A DNA stretch of 64,000 nt from the sequence record NC_020079.1. One strand, 5' to 3'. Origin of the DNA: Escherichia phage phAPEC8. The translations under genes and the position numbers were made by a program. Positions 3,242 to 39,408 of the stretch are shown piece by piece; the stretch's first letter is position 1; every line of letters begins with the position of its first letter. The notes under the pieces were generated by a model, which was not told the origin of the DNA, did no database searches, and worked only from the letters and a program-made list of their open reading frames with translations.

Positions 3242-3541
3242 ATGGAAACTATCGCTATTGTTACCGTAGAAAAACTGGTTGTTGGTGATGTATTCGCGTT
3301 AATGGTACCTAACAGCAGCAAGCTGGGCGCTTATGAAGTGATGGATCATAAAAATGAATCATTTGGCGACGGTTGCACAATGGCGGTAAAATCCTTAAAG
3401 GATGGAATCATCCGTCAAGCTAATTGGCACAAAGGGAATCAAGTCGGATTAATATCAGCTAATTTCTTGCCAGAACAGCAAACGTTAGACCAACTATCAG
3501 GCGGTAAGACGTTAGCCGAACTACTGGAAACAGCGATCTAA
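3242..3541 (+). CDS. hypothetical protein
   Basis: ORF with SD GAGGAAAA. Confidence 0.55.
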   Translation: METIAIVTVEKLVVGDVFALMVPNSSKLGAYEVMDHKNESFGDGCTMAVKSLKDGIIRQANWHKGNQVGLISANFLPEQQTLDQLSGGKTLAELLETAI

Positions 3542-3585
3542 TCAACAAAGGGGCGGCAACGCCCCACATCAGAAAGGAAAAGATT

Positions 3586-3822
3586 ATGAGTATTGCAACA
3601 GTATTAACCGCCGTTAAAACCGCTGAATCATCCGGCTTGCATGTTGAGCTTATAGATCAACCAGGTGGCGATCTCCTTGTCCAGGTTTACCCGCCGAAAG
3701 TAGGGGATGATCATTATTGGTGTTATTCTGATACGTTCGAACAAGTAGACACGAAAGCGATCACAGCCTTTATTTTAAAAGCCGTTGAAGAAAATAACTT
3801 TCATTATAACATCAATCAATAA
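3586..3822 (+). CDS. hypothetical protein
   Basis: ORF preceded by GGGGCGGCAACGCCCC hairpin and A-rich SD. Confidence 0.5.
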   Translation: MSIATVLTAVKTAESSGLHVELIDQPGGDLLVQVYPPKVGDDHYWCYSDTFEQVDTKAITAFILKAVEENNFHYNINQ

Positions 3823-3876
3823 ACCATAAGCAGGGCGGTAACGCCCCATTAAACGCAATAGGAAGAGGATAGACGC

Positions 3877-4161
3877 ATGAAAAAGATGATCGCAGTAGTT
3901 GCCCTGGTTGTTGGTATTAACGCGCCTACACTGGCTAATGAGTTGCCAGAATCCATCACGCTAACCGACATCAACGCAGTGAATCGGATCGGTGTTAATT
4001 ATCGCCTATGCCTTGCCGCTAAAACTTTCCAGGACGGCACGACAGAGTACTACGGATTCGAGGGTATCCGCTGCGGTGAGCTTGCACGCGACCTTAAGGA
4101 AGATCCAGACCTTGAGGCCATACCGATGACCGTAAACGGTAAAGCCCACGTAAACCGCTAA
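3877..4161 (+). CDS. secreted/periplasmic small protein
   Basis: N-terminal signal-peptide-like MKKMIAVVALVVGINAPTLA. Confidence 0.55.
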   Translation: MKKMIAVVALVVGINAPTLANELPESITLTDINAVNRIGVNYRLCLAAKTFQDGTTEYYGFEGIRCGELARDLKEDPDLEAIPMTVNGKAHVNR

Positions 4162-4163
4162 CC

Positions 4164-4298
4164 ATGAGAAAGGTAATCATCACAATGGGGATCGTAGTAG
4201 CAACGCTGGCGCTTATCCCTTTCATGGTTGAACATGTGCTGATCAGTGTTGTCCTTGTAGTCAGTGACCTATTGGAAACGGTTGGCACCTGGTTTTAA
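4164..4298 (+). CDS. small membrane peptide (44 aa)
   Basis: ATG ORF below cutoff; hydrophobic; terminator-like hairpin + T-run at about 4307-4332. Confidence 0.35.
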   Translation: MRKVIITMGIVVATLALIPFMVEHVLISVVLVVSDLLETVGTWF

Positions 4299-4550
4299 GA
4301 TAATAAATAGGGCTTGCAATAGTCCTATTTTTTGTTATACTTGTTGAACGGGCGGCACCTGGGAGCAGGGGAAGATAATCACCGGAAGACTCCGCTATAT
4401 ATTGATAACTAACGCCTATCAAACAACAAAACATCAAAGTAACAAACTATCAAATCTTTACAATTCCACCTATTGACACCGGATCACGCTTACACTATTA
4501 TTTATCACGTAGGGCGAGCAATACAGCAAGCCCACAAAGAGGAAAATAAA

Positions 4551-4919
4551 ATGAGCAAATCAGCAATTAAAGCACTTGAAAAAGCACAAAAAGTGATCGC
4601 CACTTCCACCACTGGCACAAGTATTAATCTGGTCGCTTACTTGGAAGATGAAACTATCCGTAAAAATTGGCGTAATGCTGATTTACTGGCTTGCTTGTTG
4701 ATTAATAGTGTCGCTAATGCTTTCCAGTGTGAAACAGCCGAGAGCCTAGAACAAAACTTGTTCGATAATATGGACCAAGCAATTGAAACATATATCCAAT
4801 CTAATTTGGACAGCTGGAACAGTAAAACATGGCCTGACAGCTTACGCGATACAACTGATCAACTGATCCGCCTTGCCCTGATGGTTGAACGCGATAACGT
4901 TTACAACAGCACAAAGTAA
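4551..4919 (+). CDS. hypothetical protein
   Basis: internal ATG with SD AGAGGAAAA; track ATG 4473 lies inside the TTGACA promoter. Confidence 0.5.
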   Translation: MSKSAIKALEKAQKVIATSTTGTSINLVAYLEDETIRKNWRNADLLACLLINSVANAFQCETAESLEQNLFDNMDQAIETYIQSNLDSWNSKTWPDSLRDTTDQLIRLALMVERDNVYNSTK

Positions 4920-34138: not shown

Positions 34139-34183
34139 TATTAATCTCCTATGTTTAAGAAATGCCCCCGAAGGGGCAGTTTG

Positions 34184-34876
34184 TTAAATAGCGGTTCCTT
34201 CGAAATCCGCCACATTTACGAGATTAATATTTTCAGATTTAGAAGTCAAGTTGTTTTCTGCAACAGATTTTTCTTCAGTATCCGCCTCGTTACCTGCCAC
34301 GTTACGAGGTTCTTCTTCACCGTAGGGATTACCGAATTTCAAAAGATTGATCAATTCTTCTTTGGAGAAGTTTTCTAAATCATCGTCTGTTAATTCAATA
34401 ATCTCGTCTTGTTCTTCAATAAATGTTTCACCACCAGAAAAAGCATCTCGCTTTTTAGCTACTTCCATAGCCTGTTCTGGTGTTGCCCCTGCATCAAGAG
34501 CAGCTAAAGCAAAGTCTGACCCACTTCCTACCGCATAATATTCTTCATCAATCGGATATGCACGTGTTGGGTTGTTACCTTCGTGCAGGAAAATACGTCC
34601 GTCTGGATGAACAACAAGTGCAATAAACTCTTCATCTTCTTTATCTGGATCAGAGTGAATCATCAAACCAGGGACAGCATCACGTGCTGCTTCGCACTGT
34701 AGATTTTGTTCAAACCATTGAAAGAAAGAAAGCACGGAGGTCAGACGACCAGCACCACCTACAAGGTAATCTCCAATTTTTCGGACCTTTTTGAAATTAA
34801 TAGAATCTACACGTCCACCAAAAGTTACCTTACCGTCACTCAAAATCTTATTTTTGGTTGCAATAATTGTCGTCAC
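34184..34876 (-). CDS. HslV-like N-terminal-threonine peptidase with acidic C-terminal extension
   Basis: MTTIIATKN..DGKVTFGG..KKVRK..YAVGSGSDFALAA parallels E. coli HslV; SD GAGGAGG. Confidence 0.65.
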   Translation of the reverse strand: MTTIIATKNKILSDGKVTFGGRVDSINFKKVRKIGDYLVGGAGRLTSVLSFFQWFEQNLQCEAARDAVPGLMIHSDPDKEDEEFIALVVHPDGRIFLHEGNNPTRAYPIDEEYYAVGSGSDFALAALDAGATPEQAMEVAKKRDAFSGGETFIEEQDEIIELTDDDLENFSKEELINLLKFGNPYGEEEPRNVAGNEADTEEKSVAENNLTSKSENINLVNVADFEGTAI

Positions 34877-35379
34877 TATTCTTCCTCCTCTGTTAATGTT
34901 TTAAGAACCGCTTTCCCGCCATTCACATATTTGCAGATGTATTCTATCGCACGTAGTGTCTCTTTGTCAACAAAAATTTGATCAGACGTTGCGAGCGGGT
35001 TATTAAGAAGATCACTGCAATCACGAACAAGCAGTGCTTTCTTATTAAACAAATTACTTAAGAACAGTAACTTCGCCTCTTCTTCTGTTATGTGCAGAAG
35101 GCTAGGATCGGAGCCAGCTATTCCTATTATACAATCAAACAAGCTTTCTTTACTATCAGAAAGTTCTTGAAAATGGTTTAAAAGCCAATCTTCTCCTAGA
35201 CACCAACATTTAAACATTTCCAGTTTATCTCGGAGGGTCATATTCTCTAAAGTAAGAGCAATCTCTTTTTCAATATGGTTTACACAAATTTGACGAAATT
35301 CGTTAGGTTTTACGAGTCCCGTTTGATAGCACTCATCTATACCGCTTCTTCCGATAGCTATTGTTGCTACACCCATCAA
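34876..35379 (-). CDS. hypothetical protein
   Basis: ORF tiling. Confidence 0.5.
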   Translation of the reverse strand: MMGVATIAIGRSGIDECYQTGLVKPNEFRQICVNHIEKEIALTLENMTLRDKLEMFKCWCLGEDWLLNHFQELSDSKESLFDCIIGIAGSDPSLLHITEEEAKLLFLSNLFNKKALLVRDCSDLLNNPLATSDQIFVDKETLRAIEYICKYVNGGKAVLKTLTEEEE

Positions 35380-35411: not shown

Positions 35412-36170
35412 TTAAATAAACACTTCAGTAATCAGTTTAGACAAACGTCCACGTTTATTATCGTCCGTTGTCAGTTCAACGTATCCAATAAAATCTACAA
35501 TTGGCTCACGAACACCTTCTTCATTTTCTGGATATAAAAGTTCCAAAATTTGATGCAGACCATTGCTACGTTTTTTAATTGCATATGTCTGGCGAACATC
35601 GCCTAATACAATAACATGCGTATTAATACCTGCACGTTCAATAAGAAGTTTAAGTGTTTCTGTTGACATAAGTTGTGCTTCGTCAATAATGACGATTGTA
35701 TTATCCAGGGTGGCCCCCAACAAATAGTTAGGAATATTCAATTCGATCTTACCTGATCCAATATCGTTTTCCAATTTGTTGGCTGTCATGAATTGCTGGA
35801 AAATACGTTTTGTAGATTCATAGTGTGCTGCTAGTTTATCTGTTTTATCCCCAGACAAGAAACCAATCTGGTCATCTCCTACTTCAGTAGGGTTCTTGAT
35901 AAAAAGTAGTTTACGGAAGTCTCCTGAACGAAGCATCTGCAAAGCTTTCCATAAAGCAACAGAGGTTTTACCAGTCCCTGCCGGAGCATTTACAACAGTC
36001 AGATCATTCCAGATCATGCTTTGAACAATCTTATTTTGGTCCCCTTCAGGCATAAATTCATCTAAACGGTAATCGTCATTACCTACCGCTTTTGCTGCAT
36101 AACGGCTTTCAATCTTTGCTGAATTAGCCAATTTCTGCCGTTGTGTTTTAGCTGCGGTTTTATTTCCCAT
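35412..36170 (-). CDS. phoH: PhoH-like ATPase
   Basis: Walker A NAPAGTGKTS, Walker B VIIDEAQ; start moved to MGNK after terminator hairpin and SD. Confidence 0.85.
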   Translation of the reverse strand: MGNKTAAKTQRQKLANSAKIESRYAAKAVGNDDYRLDEFMPEGDQNKIVQSMIWNDLTVVNAPAGTGKTSVALWKALQMLRSGDFRKLLFIKNPTEVGDDQIGFLSGDKTDKLAAHYESTKRIFQQFMTANKLENDIGSGKIELNIPNYLLGATLDNTIVIIDEAQLMSTETLKLLIERAGINTHVIVLGDVRQTYAIKKRSNGLHQILELLYPENEEGVREPIVDFIGYVELTTDDNKRGRLSKLITEVFI

Positions 36171-36207
36171 AGTAGCACTCCTTTTAGAAGGGGCCGAAGC
36201 CCCTTTA

Positions 36208-36708
36208 TTAGTTGTAAGCATCTAAAGTTCCAGAAGTCAGAACTTTAATTACTCGTTCAGCACGGTTTGGCGTCTGGCTATACCATTGGCTTTTACGCAT
36301 GTTTTTACCTGCTTGAGTATAATATGCATTGCTGATTAAAGTCAAGCTATTTTGAAACCCTTCAGCACCTTTTAACCCCAACTGGAAAACCATGTTGATT
36401 ATTCCCAATTTACGAGTATCACTAACCTTATCATAGATTGGTGATAAGATAGCACTGTTTTTTATGTCTCTCTTCACTTTTGCAACATCGTCAGCAAAGA
36501 TTTGACGGGCTTCTTTTTCTGTGATAACTCCATTAGTCTTACGACCAAGAAGATTATCTAAGATTTGAATAGCCTTTGCTTTATCTTTTATTTTAGTCAG
36601 AAGGTGTCCTATGCCGACTGTCCAATAACCAAGATGGTCTTGATAAACAGTAAGCTTCAGTCCTTCATCGACTCGTAGCATATCAAACTCATCTACTACT
36701 TTAGCCAT
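36208..36708 (-). CDS. T4-type lysozyme (GH24 endolysin)
   Basis: RVDEGLKLTVYQDHLGYWTVGIGHLLTK, INMVFQLG, WYSQTPNRAERV collinear with T4 lysozyme. Confidence 0.95.
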   Translation of the reverse strand: MAKVVDEFDMLRVDEGLKLTVYQDHLGYWTVGIGHLLTKIKDKAKAIQILDNLLGRKTNGVITEKEARQIFADDVAKVKRDIKNSAILSPIYDKVSDTRKLGIINMVFQLGLKGAEGFQNSLTLISNAYYTQAGKNMRKSQWYSQTPNRAERVIKVLTSGTLDAYN

Positions 36709-36870: not shown

Positions 36871-37131
36871 TTACTCCGCAATTTGAGCCATGAGATCACG
36901 CAGTTCGGTAAAACCGCCTACGTATGTTACCTCCCCGTTCACTTCAGACAGAATTTGTGGAAATGTGCGTGGAGGAACTCCGGTAAGATCAACAACTGTT
37001 TTAGTCATTGATTCTAAATCATAGTCTTGATCAAGACTTAAATATTCAAACTGTTTATTGCGCATGGTTAATAGTTGTTTTGACATTTCACAAAATTGAC
37101 AGTTAGGTTTACCAAAAATTACAAATTCCAT
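36871..37131 (-). CDS. glutaredoxin/NrdH-like redoxin
   Basis: 86 aa, N-terminal CQFC active-site motif. Confidence 0.6.
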   Translation of the reverse strand: MEFVIFGKPNCQFCEMSKQLLTMRNKQFEYLSLDQDYDLESMTKTVVDLTGVPPRTFPQILSEVNGEVTYVGGFTELRDLMAQIAE

Positions 37132-37973
37132 TACCTCTCCTTATTAAGTAATACTGCTAAAGACTGTTCAATACCTTTATTTAAATCTGATTTTGTAAGA
37201 TAGTGACTGGTTACTAGTTGTGACTTCATCGGACGTGCTGCTGGAGCATTATAGGTTGAAGCTGATACCGCCGATATCTTAACAGGTTCTGGCATCTGTG
37301 TCAAGATCTTTTCCGCAAACTCCGCCCAAGAAATAAGATGGCTTCCTGCAAAATGGTAAGTCTTAACAGACCTTGACCAACCTGTTCTTAATACTTCAAA
37401 AATAGCTTCTGCTAAATCTGGAGCATATGTTGGACAAGAGAACTGATCAGCAACAATAATAAAATCACGTTGTCCATCATTATAGCGAGACAACATGGTT
37501 TTTAGAAAGTTATTTCCAAATTCGCTATATACCGAGGCTGTTCGAATAATATATGCATTTGGGTTAACTCCTCGCACCATTTTTTCACCAAGTTCTTTCG
37601 TATACCCATAATTGTTTATTGGGTTAGGTGTAGTATCTTCAAAAATAGGATGAGAATAATTAAAAATATAGTCTGTAGAAATATGCACAAAATCAATTTT
37701 AAGTTTGCTGCACACTGCCGCAATATTTGCAGGTCCATACGCATTAACAGCCAAAGCAGTAGCAAAATCATGTTCTGCTTTATCTACAGCCGTATAAGCG
37801 GCGCAATTAATAACACCATCTACATAATCTTCAATAATAGCGTTTCGCACAGCTTCAAAATTTGTAATATCTACACGTTCTTTAGGATAAATTAAAGATA
37901 CATTTGAAGGAGCCACTTTACGTAAAGCTTGTCCCAGTTGTCCATTACCGCCCAATACCAGATATGTTAGCAT
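37131..37973 (-). CDS. rmlD: dTDP-4-dehydrorhamnose reductase
   Basis: N-terminal GGNGQLG Rossmann motif; size and operon context. Confidence 0.8.
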   Translation of the reverse strand: MLTYLVLGGNGQLGQALRKVAPSNVSLIYPKERVDITNFEAVRNAIIEDYVDGVINCAAYTAVDKAEHDFATALAVNAYGPANIAAVCSKLKIDFVHISTDYIFNYSHPIFEDTTPNPINNYGYTKELGEKMVRGVNPNAYIIRTASVYSEFGNNFLKTMLSRYNDGQRDFIIVADQFSCPTYAPDLAEAIFEVLRTGWSRSVKTYHFAGSHLISWAEFAEKILTQMPEPVKISAVSASTYNAPAARPMKSQLVTSHYLTKSDLNKGIEQSLAVLLNKER

Positions 37974-38533
37974 ACACCCTCGCTACGTAACTGTTGAAAA
38001 GATTTAGCCATTGCATCTTTTGTTGATAGAATAGGTTTAAAACCTTCGTCAAAAATCATATCGAAGCCCCAATCGATCCCTATATCAGGATCATCCCAAC
38101 GTAAACTTTGTTCACTAGAAGGGTCGTATGGAGTTGTGCATTTGTATTCAAAGATAGCATCCATACTCAAAACTATAAAACCATGAGCCAAACCAGGCGG
38201 AAGCCAAAACTGCGTATGGTGTCGTGCACGAAGAACAACACCGTCCCAAGCACCGTAAGTTGGACTATCTTTACGTAAATCTACAGCGAAATCCAATACT
38301 TCCCCACTTACACAACGAACTAGCTTACCTTGCGGGTTATTTGTTTGAAAGTGCATTCCTCGCAAAACACCGAAGTTTGATTTAGACATGTTATCTTGAA
38401 CGAAAGTTTGTCTACCAATAATATCTTCGTATTTTTGTTCATTATATGTTTCTAGAAAGAAACCACGATCATCTTTATAAACGTCTGGTTTGATAATTAC
38501 CGCACCTTCAATTTTTGTTTTTTCTACTTTCAT
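37967..38533 (-). CDS. rmlC: dTDP-4-dehydrorhamnose 3,5-epimerase
   Basis: [35 protein letters not shown]; start at internal ATG. Confidence 0.9.
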
Positions 38534-39408
38534 TTTCTCTCCGCTAATTTGAGTAGGTATTGCCCGTACTCTGTTTTCTTCAGTGAGTTTCCATGATACA
38601 CCAAAGTCTCTAAAGAAATCCACCCTTTTTTGAAAGCAATTTCTTCCAAGCACGCAATCTTCAATCCTTGACAGTTCTCAATAGTCTGCACGAATTGACC
38701 AGCTTCCATCAGACTGGCGTGTGTTCCTGTGTCAAGCCAAGTAAATCCTCGTCCGAGAACTTCCACTTGTAACTTCCTGTCTTCTAGGTAGCTGCGATTG
38801 ATATCAGTGATCTCCAGTTCTCCACGCGCGGAAGGGGTTACTTCTAATGCACGTTGAATAACAGAGTTATCATAGAAATACAAACCTGTGACAGCATAAT
38901 CTGATTTAGGATTTTCAGGTTTCTCTTCAATAGAAATAGCTTGACGATTACTCCCAAATTCAACCACACCGAATCGTTCAGGATCTTTCACCAAATACCC
39001 GAAAATACAAGCTCCGCCCCAAACATCTACCATCTCACTGGCGTTAATCAGTAGTTTACCAAAGCTTTGTCCGAAGAATAGGTTGTCACCTAAAATAAGA
39101 GCAACAGAGTCTTCTCCGATAAAATCTTTACCTATGATGAAAGCTTCCGCAAGACCTCGTGGCTCGGATTGGATTGCGTAAGTGAGTTTTATCCCAAACA
39201 TAGACCCATCTCCGAGAAGATACTCAAAGTCTTCCTGATCACCTGGTGTGGTGATGATTAAAATATCCTTAATGTCAGCCAACATCAATACCGATAAAGG
39301 GTAGTAGATCATGGGTTTGTCATACACAGGGAGCAATTGCTTGCTCACACTGCGTGTTACCGGATGAAGGCGGGTTCCACTTCCTCCCGCCAAAATAATA
39401 CCTTTCAT
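38530..39408 (-). CDS. rmlA: glucose-1-phosphate thymidylyltransferase
   Basis: [18 protein letters not shown]. Confidence 0.9.

Follow-up and report, generated by a model that had tools for sequence, protein, structure and literature searches.

The 64-kb window analysed here, a stretch of 64,000 nucleotides from Escherichia phage phAPEC8 (NC_020079.1), carries on its minus strand, at 34184..34876, a gene for a small threonine peptidase of the proteasome fold (HslV superfamily), which fits the phage-encoded PPH type. The open reading frame (ORF) that the initial annotation had marked there is real: it has 230 codons, with the refinements that it lies on the minus strand and opens with GTG, closing with a TAA stop at 34184-34186. 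A Shine-Dalgarno sequence, GAGGAGG, can be read at 34884-34890 (minus strand), 7 nucleotides (nt) ahead of the start codon, which overlaps by one base the TAG stop (34876-34878) of the preceding ORF. A consensus scan located a terminator-like, GC-rich hairpin followed by a T-rich run (TGCCCC-TTCG-GGGGCA; 34163..34178, minus strand) 5 nt past the peptidase stop. The N-terminus of the product is MTTIIATKNK. The hslV gene of E. coli K-12 (stretch L010, 2758-3288, minus strand) has the same unusual start, GTG followed by ACx ACx ATx (V/M-T-T-I).

The phage is a phAPEC8/ESCO5-like E. coli myovirus (Phapecoctavirus), and the 4 kb around the peptidase gene are 99.5-99.6% identical at the nt level to more than 50 Escherichia phages of this genus, including phAPEC8 and ESCO5. 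Both the gene and its family are already known. In RefSeq the ESCO5 gene (gp077) bears the name ‘peptidase HslV family’ and that of phi92 (gene 058) the name ‘peptidase HslV family / putative 20S proteasome’; elsewhere the gene is entered as ‘ATP-dependent protease subunit’ or ‘hypothetical protein’. The PHROGs family phrog_1040 (‘peptidase HslV family’) matches the protein from end to end, its residues 1-229 falling on positions 14-247 of the 277-position profile (E-value 1.6e-63). Phage proteasome homologs have, moreover, been described in the literature.

The protease core occupies residues 1-158 (34403..34876, minus strand), and contains the presumptive nucleophile Thr2 (codon 34871-34873), Asp14, Lys30, Gly40, a Gly117-Ser118-Gly119 segment and, near its end, an RDAFSGG motif. 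In both pairwise and multiple alignments T2, D14, K30, G40 and S118 correspond to Thr1, Asp17, Lys33, Gly45 and Ser124 of E. coli K-12 HslV. The initial annotation had called the protein HslV-like from its Met-Thr-Thr-Ile start, with a Thr exposed once Met is removed, and from its likeness to HslV through a KKVRK stretch and a GSG segment, and had made this reading depend on the alignment of the catalytic Thr and Lys with HslV. All of this is borne out: the protein begins M-T-T-I-I, with T2 at HslV Thr1; the second Lys of FKKVRK is K30, aligned with HslV Lys33; YAVGSGSDFALAA contains S118, aligned with HslV Ser124; and Asp17 and Gly45 have their counterparts as well. Across an alignment of 55 homologs, reaching down to 26% identity, M1, T2, T3, I4, D14, K30 and G117-S118-G119 are invariant, and G40 is conserved in at least 90% of the sequences.

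An AlphaFold2 monomer model built on the same 55 homologs has a mean predicted local distance difference test (pLDDT) score of 85.2, with values above 90 over most of the core. Structure prediction, proposed at the outset as a check, places HslV chains at the head of the PDB matches (E-value ~1e-10), with HslV from five species, the beta-proteobacterial proteasome homolog (BPH) and 20S beta subunits together forming the top Foldseek matches (E-values ~1e-10 to 1e-8). Altogether 776 PDB chains match at E-value <= 0.001, with a template modelling (TM) score of ~0.67 normalised to the target, and the alpha-beta-beta-alpha sandwich of the model superposes on solved members of the proteasome beta/HslV superfamily. 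By sequence, the best solved relatives are again HslV chains (Thermotoga maritima HslV 1m4y, E-value 4.9e-9), and the Pfam Proteasome family (PF00227) is matched with 25.6 bits against a gathering score of 22.4 (E-value 1.1e-5). Matches of this strength lie well outside what chance would give. As far as sequence and predicted structure show, the protein is a proteasome-type threonine peptidase of the proteasome beta/HslV superfamily (Ntn hydrolases); the gene is real and the enzyme probably active.

Its relationship to HslV itself is more distant than the database names suggest. The two NCBIfam HslV equivalogs, NF003964 and TIGR03692, scored 32.2 and 31.4 bits against cut-offs of 137 and 157.75, whereas E. 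coli HslV, run as a control alongside, scored 303.8 and 288.2 bits; over 157 aligned residues the phage protein is 27% identical to E. coli HslV. Judged by sequence, the peptidase is not an HslV ortholog, because the equivalog scores fall far under the cut-offs and its nearest relatives are small phage-type proteasome homologs, and the name ‘HslV’ overstates the relationship. The description ‘HslV-like’ consequently stands at the level of the superfamily, but not for HslV proper, both equivalogs having been missed by more than 100 bits.

HslV proper is a dodecamer built of two hexameric rings, and HslU with ATP stimulates its activity. In this activation the C-terminal residues of HslU enter pockets at the subunit boundaries of HslV, which in the E. 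coli and Haemophilus influenzae enzymes are lined by Phe54 and Phe57 from helix H1, Ala79 and Lys80 from helix H2, and Gln114 (PMC6429459). In the AlphaFold2 model of the phage protein a single helix (residues 45-67) gives way to coil as far as residue 83, where HslV has helix H2. This site is taken up by an acidic loop, VPGLMIHSDPDKEDEE (residues 68-83; 34628..34675, minus strand), that contains Pro and Gly and has six Asp/Glu against one Lys/Arg among its 16 residues. In the alignment Phe57 is conserved as Phe52, Phe54 is replaced by Leu49 and Gln114 by Ala106, and the positions of Ala79 and Lys80 fall inside the Pro/Gly-containing loop. On the model, the phage protein would therefore not match the H1 and H2 pair of HslV or its pocket for the HslU C-terminus.

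A partner ATPase does not accompany the gene. As the initial annotation had noted, no HslU-like sequence occurs in the 64-kb window, and the phage group appears to be without one; none is annotated in 44 kb of ESCO5, and no unfoldase gene lies beside two distant family members on metagenomic contigs. When E. coli HslU was run by tblastn against every phage record, 164 were hit, mainly host contamination and Erwinia/Salmonella jumbo phages; only four of them are labelled ‘Escherichia’ phage, compared to more than 100 Escherichia phages with the peptidase. Dependence on host HslU is unlikely by sequence and model, because H2 and most pocket residues are missing, no unfoldase travels with the gene, and the acidic loop resembles that of the unfoldase-independent BPH. 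Among the three options originally raised for the protein, that it acts alone is favoured, whereas assembly with host HslU and poisoning of it are both disfavoured by these missing elements and by the 27% identity to HslV.

Some of the Erwinia and Salmonella jumbo phages do encode an HslU-like ATPase, with 33-44% identity to E. coli HslU in two aligned pieces. In the Salmonella jumbo phage pSal-SNUABM-04, two HslV genes and no HslU have been reported (PMC7823757). These jumbo phages are the place to seek a complete phage-encoded HslUV-like system.

The examination of related phages that had been suggested for the gene yielded homologs in 232 phage records by tblastn, in phages of Escherichia and Klebsiella (Stephanstirmvirinae), Vibrio, Aeromonas, Shewanella, Caulobacter, Rhizobium and Rhodobacter. 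The forms in the alphaproteobacterial phages, of Caulobacter, Rhizobium and Rhodobacter, are short (131-156 aa). A family profile run against 1.84 billion representative sequences matched 11,144 proteins at E-value <= 0.001 and 5,146 at E-value <= 1e-10, the latter level comprising about 5,000 clusters at 50% identity. Of the best 150 of the 11,144 hits, none scores higher than 37.5 bits with E. coli HslV and almost all start MTT[IV]; once the ~65 closest clusters are passed, most are 137-160 residues long. The peptidase fold is shared by 47 viral structure clusters, and proteasome-like peptidases are thus widespread in phages.

In the Aeromonas phage 4L372D (stretch L007) two proteasome-fold genes stand in tandem, at 3432-3983 and 4001-4885. 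The upstream gene encodes 183 aa beginning MTCIIAL (phrog_1040, E-value 9.6e-26), and keeps Thr2, the Asp and the Lys, with GCG in place of GSG; the downstream gene, of 294 aa, is the ortholog of the peptidase in the window. The pair could form a two-subunit particle. Among the remaining records, ‘Pseudomonas phage PsgM04F’ (OR584014.1) encodes a protein 85.6% identical to the peptidase. The Escherichia phage vB_EcoM-Ro121c4YLVW has a 159-aa form (P0023), identical to residues 72-230, that starts at an internal Met and so is without the catalytic N-terminus; either its start was called wrongly or the N-terminal part of the gene is disrupted in this phage. MG065650.1 and four other ‘Campylobacter phage’ records, labelled as C. 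jejuni phages, are 99.5% identical at the nt level to this E. coli phage, and by sequence their host labels look doubtful.

The second distinguishing feature of the protein is its C-terminal extension. With the core taken to end ten residues past a conserved D-x-[FY]-[ST]-G motif, the extension that the initial annotation had put at about 60 acidic residues is present, but is longer and less uniformly acidic: its ~72-75 residues include 18-20 Asp/Glu and 5 Lys/Arg, for a net charge of -13. Its first ~25 residues are confidently predicted to be helical and are moderately conserved. Here two short helices (residues 164-169 and 172-181, DDDLEN and KEELINLLKF; 34334..34387, minus strand) are predicted to form a hairpin carrying an ‘SKEEL’ motif, in a block of the AlphaFold2 model with pLDDT 89-93. 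Among the 122 family members with a tail of more than 25 aa, 91 have the motif ‘LT.E.L..[FM]SKEEL..LL’, including members from Vibrio, Aeromonas and Klebsiella phages that are only ~35% identical in the core. Beyond the hairpin, residues 185-230 (34187..34324, minus strand) form a distal tail that is predicted to be disordered (pLDDT 46-60), is rich in acidic residues (11 Asp/Glu against 3 Lys/Arg) and is hypervariable.

This division is mirrored in the conservation of the 75 long homologs: their fractional identity with the query falls from 0.74 over the core to 0.44 over segment 159-184 and 0.14 over residues 185-230, where occupancy is 68%. The C-terminal tripeptides of the long homologs are not conserved, and no conserved C-terminal docking motif of the kind expected for a built-in activator (resembling the HslU tail or HbYX) was found among them. 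In relatives, acidic linkers lead into further domains at the place where the query has its tail. By sequence and model, the extension is a semi-conserved hairpin beside the core followed by an interchangeable distal module.

The C-terminal 60-200 residues of the relatives P0061-P0071, P0075, P0092, P0099, P0119, P0130 and P0137 hold at least two unrelated extra domains. One is a terminal ‘KWRLHNA’ type; the other, with the pattern ‘L..LA..L.I.FAHNIG..KL...I’, is helix-turn-helix- or helix-extended-helix-like and recalls Rho_N/HeH/SAP. Searches of these extra domains against Pfam gave nothing significant, Rho_N reaching only an E-value of 0.39.

Proteasome homologs, including the PPH group, were surveyed by Fuchs, Alva and Lupas in 2021 (PMC8665760), and the peptidase fits the small phage-type branch described there in all but its tail, a placement made by description and not by clustering with the reference sequence WP_042125023.1. 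Like PPH, it is encoded by a tailed phage, has the Thr directly after Met with no propeptide, keeps the Thr/Asp/Lys triad, appears from the predicted secondary structure to be without helix H2, and has nearest neighbours in the profile search of 137-160 aa. It differs from PPH in having a core of ~158 aa, as opposed to ~140 aa, and a 72-aa C-terminal extension that brings it to 230 aa. The same survey defined RPC, a related bacterial group with a C-terminal extension (PMC8665760). Compared by description, RPC likewise combines a PPH-like core that has no H2 with an extra C-terminal region, but it is described as more divergent and has been reported from proteobacterial genomes only, whereas the query is phage-borne.

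With HslV (ClpQ), the source of its best PDB matches, the phage protein shares the fold, the MTTI N-terminus with Met removal, and Thr1, Asp17, Lys33, Gly45 and Ser124. It departs from HslV in falling far under the equivalog cut-offs, in having neither the predicted H2 nor most of the HslU-tail pocket residues, in having no adjacent hslU, in its C-terminal extension, and in its RDxxSGG motif, which is absent from E. coli HslV. The motif would resemble one in 20S beta5, to judge by comparison with a beta5 sequence and by the range of the weak full-length PDB matches; a fragment query of the motif against the PDB gave no proteasome matches.

BPH (PDB 5ovs; PMC5777263) is among the top fold matches and offers a parallel for action in the absence of an unfoldase. 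No unfoldase partner is known for it, and the loop that lines its pore after H1/H2 is long and acidic, whereas that of HslV is very short (PMC8665760); at this position the phage protein also has an acidic loop. In contrast to the phage protein, BPH is bacterial, keeps both H1 and H2, assembles into heptameric double rings and lacks an acidic tail at its C-terminus. In connectase, a further member of the superfamily, H1 and H2 are both absent and a two-helix insertion covers the active site (PMC8665760).

Evidence on whether the gene is needed comes from phage VEcB. In its RefSeq genome (NC_052663.1, 147,702 bp; stretch L011, 2501-3304), a 267-aa ORF is an in-frame fusion of PhoH residues 1-112 with the last 155 residues of the peptidase. 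Compared with phi92 (stretch L002, 3064-4186) and with OZ035773.1, VEcB has a deletion of ~1,122 bp with an 8-9-nt overlap at the junction, which takes the 3' part of phoH, the whole of the ORF upstream of the peptidase, and the first ~62 peptidase codons, including those for the Thr, Asp and Lys. OZ035773.1 is a second VEcB assembly, of 148,885 bp and thus 1,183 bp longer, in which the peptidase is intact. Because a viable isolate has lost the gene, the peptidase would appear to be accessory and unneeded for laboratory propagation, unless NC_052663 contains an assembly error. RefSeq still names the VEcB chimera ‘peptidase HslV family’, though it has none of the catalytic Thr, Asp and Lys.

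Taken together, these observations are best explained by a catalytically competent Ntn threonine peptidase of the PPH type that acts independently of HslU, bears a modular tail and has an accessory role, a reading that on sequence and model seems reasonably probable. Host methionine aminopeptidase would remove Met1, exposing the Thr as the nucleophile as in E. coli HslV, since Met is removed before small residues and HslV starts in the same way. From its fold, the protein may be expected to assemble into rings resembling those of HslV or BPH. It would most likely act without HslU, since an acidic loop stands in for H2 and for half of the site that takes up the HslU C-terminus in an arrangement that resembles BPH, and such unfoldase-independent action would point to unfolded or disordered polypeptides and peptides as substrates. 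The two modules of the extension, a hairpin beside the core and a lineage-specific acidic tail, may speculatively be viewed as an outward-facing recruitment or regulatory arm, since the C-termini of the superfamily point away from the rings and are possible interaction sites (PMC8665760).

Several points weigh against this interpretation. The absence of H2 is read from an AlphaFold2 monomer and from Pro/Gly content rather than from a solved structure; with Phe57 kept as Phe52, and Phe54 replaced by Leu49, some contact with HslU is possible; the PPH placement follows a published description, not a comparison with the reference sequence; what the tail is proposed to do is conjecture; and where experiments on phage HslV/PPH proteins were sought in the literature, only mentions in genome annotations came to light.

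The retained Phe57 equivalent is also one of the grounds for supposing that the phage protein docks on host HslU, either forming a hybrid ATP-dependent protease of new specificity or titrating HslU away from host HslV. Proteobacteria possess HslUV, the known hosts of the phages that carry the gene are all HslUV-bearing proteobacteria, the closest solved structures are HslV chains, and the phage has no unfoldase of its own. Nonetheless this appears unlikely, given that both HslV equivalogs failed by more than 100 bits, that identity to E. coli HslV is 27%, and that H2 and the Ala79, Lys80 and Gln114 pocket residues are missing; the nearest relatives, of 137-160 aa, are even more reduced and occur in phages of very different hosts. 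Distinctly unlikely, and ranked after it, is the view that the tail or hairpin recruits another host machine (ClpX, ClpA or Lon) or a specific host or defence protein, making the enzyme a targeted degrader. Such recruitment would suit a tail that is modular and lineage-specific on a conserved core, the alternative C-terminal domains that relatives bear at the same place, and the outward-facing C-termini of homologs with their possible interaction sites (PMC8665760). Set against this, no interaction motif of a known kind and no Pfam domain was found in any tail, conservation is lacking at the extreme C-terminus, and a hypervariable distal tail fits relaxed constraint equally well. An improbable extension of the idea, and a broader one, would make the core with its interchangeable arms an unfoldase-independent phage ‘targeted degrader’, in which the arm of each lineage picks the host proteins to be destroyed, such as defence or stress-response factors. 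The arms would comprise the acidic disordered tail of this phage, the HeH/Rho_N-like or ‘KWRLHNA’ domains of relatives, and the tandem second paralog of Aeromonas phages; if this were true, the Aeromonas two-gene arrangement would be the first viral hetero-oligomeric proteasome-like particle.

Very improbable is a non-degradative role, whether as a sequence-specific transpeptidase or ligase, as a processing enzyme comparable to connectase, or as a non-catalytic scaffold. Connectase is a monomeric proteasome homolog that acts as a ligase (PMC8665760), and the loss of H2 could impair ring formation; however, neither the joint absence of H1 and H2 that marks connectase nor its two inserted helices at the active site are seen in the AlphaFold2 model, and the invariance of the full catalytic set argues against a non-catalytic role. 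Many large phages do encode a dedicated head-maturation protease, but that the peptidase serves as a morphogenetic (prohead-maturation) protease is scarcely credible. Its predicted fold appears to differ from the known prohead protease folds, it lies among nucleotide-metabolism and other non-structural genes (ribonucleotide reductase, glutaredoxin, PhoH, methyltransferases), and its deletion from viable VEcB effectively refutes the proposal.

What these results contribute beyond the existing annotation is that the ‘HslV’ name is too strong, that dependence on host HslU is unlikely, and that in the extension a helical part is conserved whereas the distal part can be swapped. The tail anatomy and the evidence against HslU refine a known picture and are not a discovery. 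The gene resides in easily handled E. coli phages (phAPEC8, ESCO5 and phi92), and the natural deletion variant of VEcB stands beside an intact sister assembly; the role of a phage proteasome-like enzyme is therefore open to direct genetics and biochemistry.

On the minus strand the peptidase closes a block that runs lysozyme, PhoH, a 167-aa ORF, peptidase and terminator-like hairpin, within an extended series of non-structural genes on that strand, among them those for ribonucleotide reductase, glutaredoxin, dTDP-sugar enzymes and methyltransferases. The 167-aa ORF (34876..35379, minus strand), translationally coupled to the peptidase, belongs to phrog_14834 (E-value 2.6e-103), which has no assigned function and is confined to the E. 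coli/Klebsiella phage group; its relatives include phi92 gp059 (67% identity) and Klebsiella FBKp34_243 (38%). AlphaFold2 predicts an all-helical domain (pLDDT 92.9), for which no Pfam or NCBIfam match and no PDB fold match was found (best E-value 0.21). The idea that this ORF might be a divergent proteasome-fold partner, suggested by the upstream paralog in Aeromonas, was rejected on the helical model and the lack of a domain or fold match. Its cysteines C17 and C121 are invariant, and C83 is conserved in at least 90% of sequences.

The next gene upstream encodes a PhoH-like P-loop ATPase (35412..36221, minus strand), identified through annotations in relatives and BLASTP matches to Vibrio and Aeromonas PhoH. 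The PhoH-peptidase gene order recurs in ESCO5, phi92, Klebsiella FBKp34, Vibrio 424E50-1 and VnaP, and one metagenomic contig, and in Aeromonas 4L372D a PhoH-like gene lies ~2.7 kb upstream of the peptidase gene; the order was not found in the alphaproteobacterial phages examined. Since the synteny is absent from the latter, it is inseparable from shared backbone ancestry, and PhoH is not advanced as a functional ATPase partner.

A sigma-70-like promoter at 34970..34941 was set aside, as such sites in the region are not above shuffled expectation. A ‘terminator’ feature is annotated at some point inside the matched 4-kb stretch of phage vB_EcoM_ASO2A. Further upstream, at 36871-39408 of the window (minus strand; ESCO5 gp083-gp086), a run of dTDP-sugar genes (RmlA/RmlC/RmlD-like) lies beside the glutaredoxin and lysozyme genes, and farther along the phage are a Sir2-like gene and a DprA-like gene.

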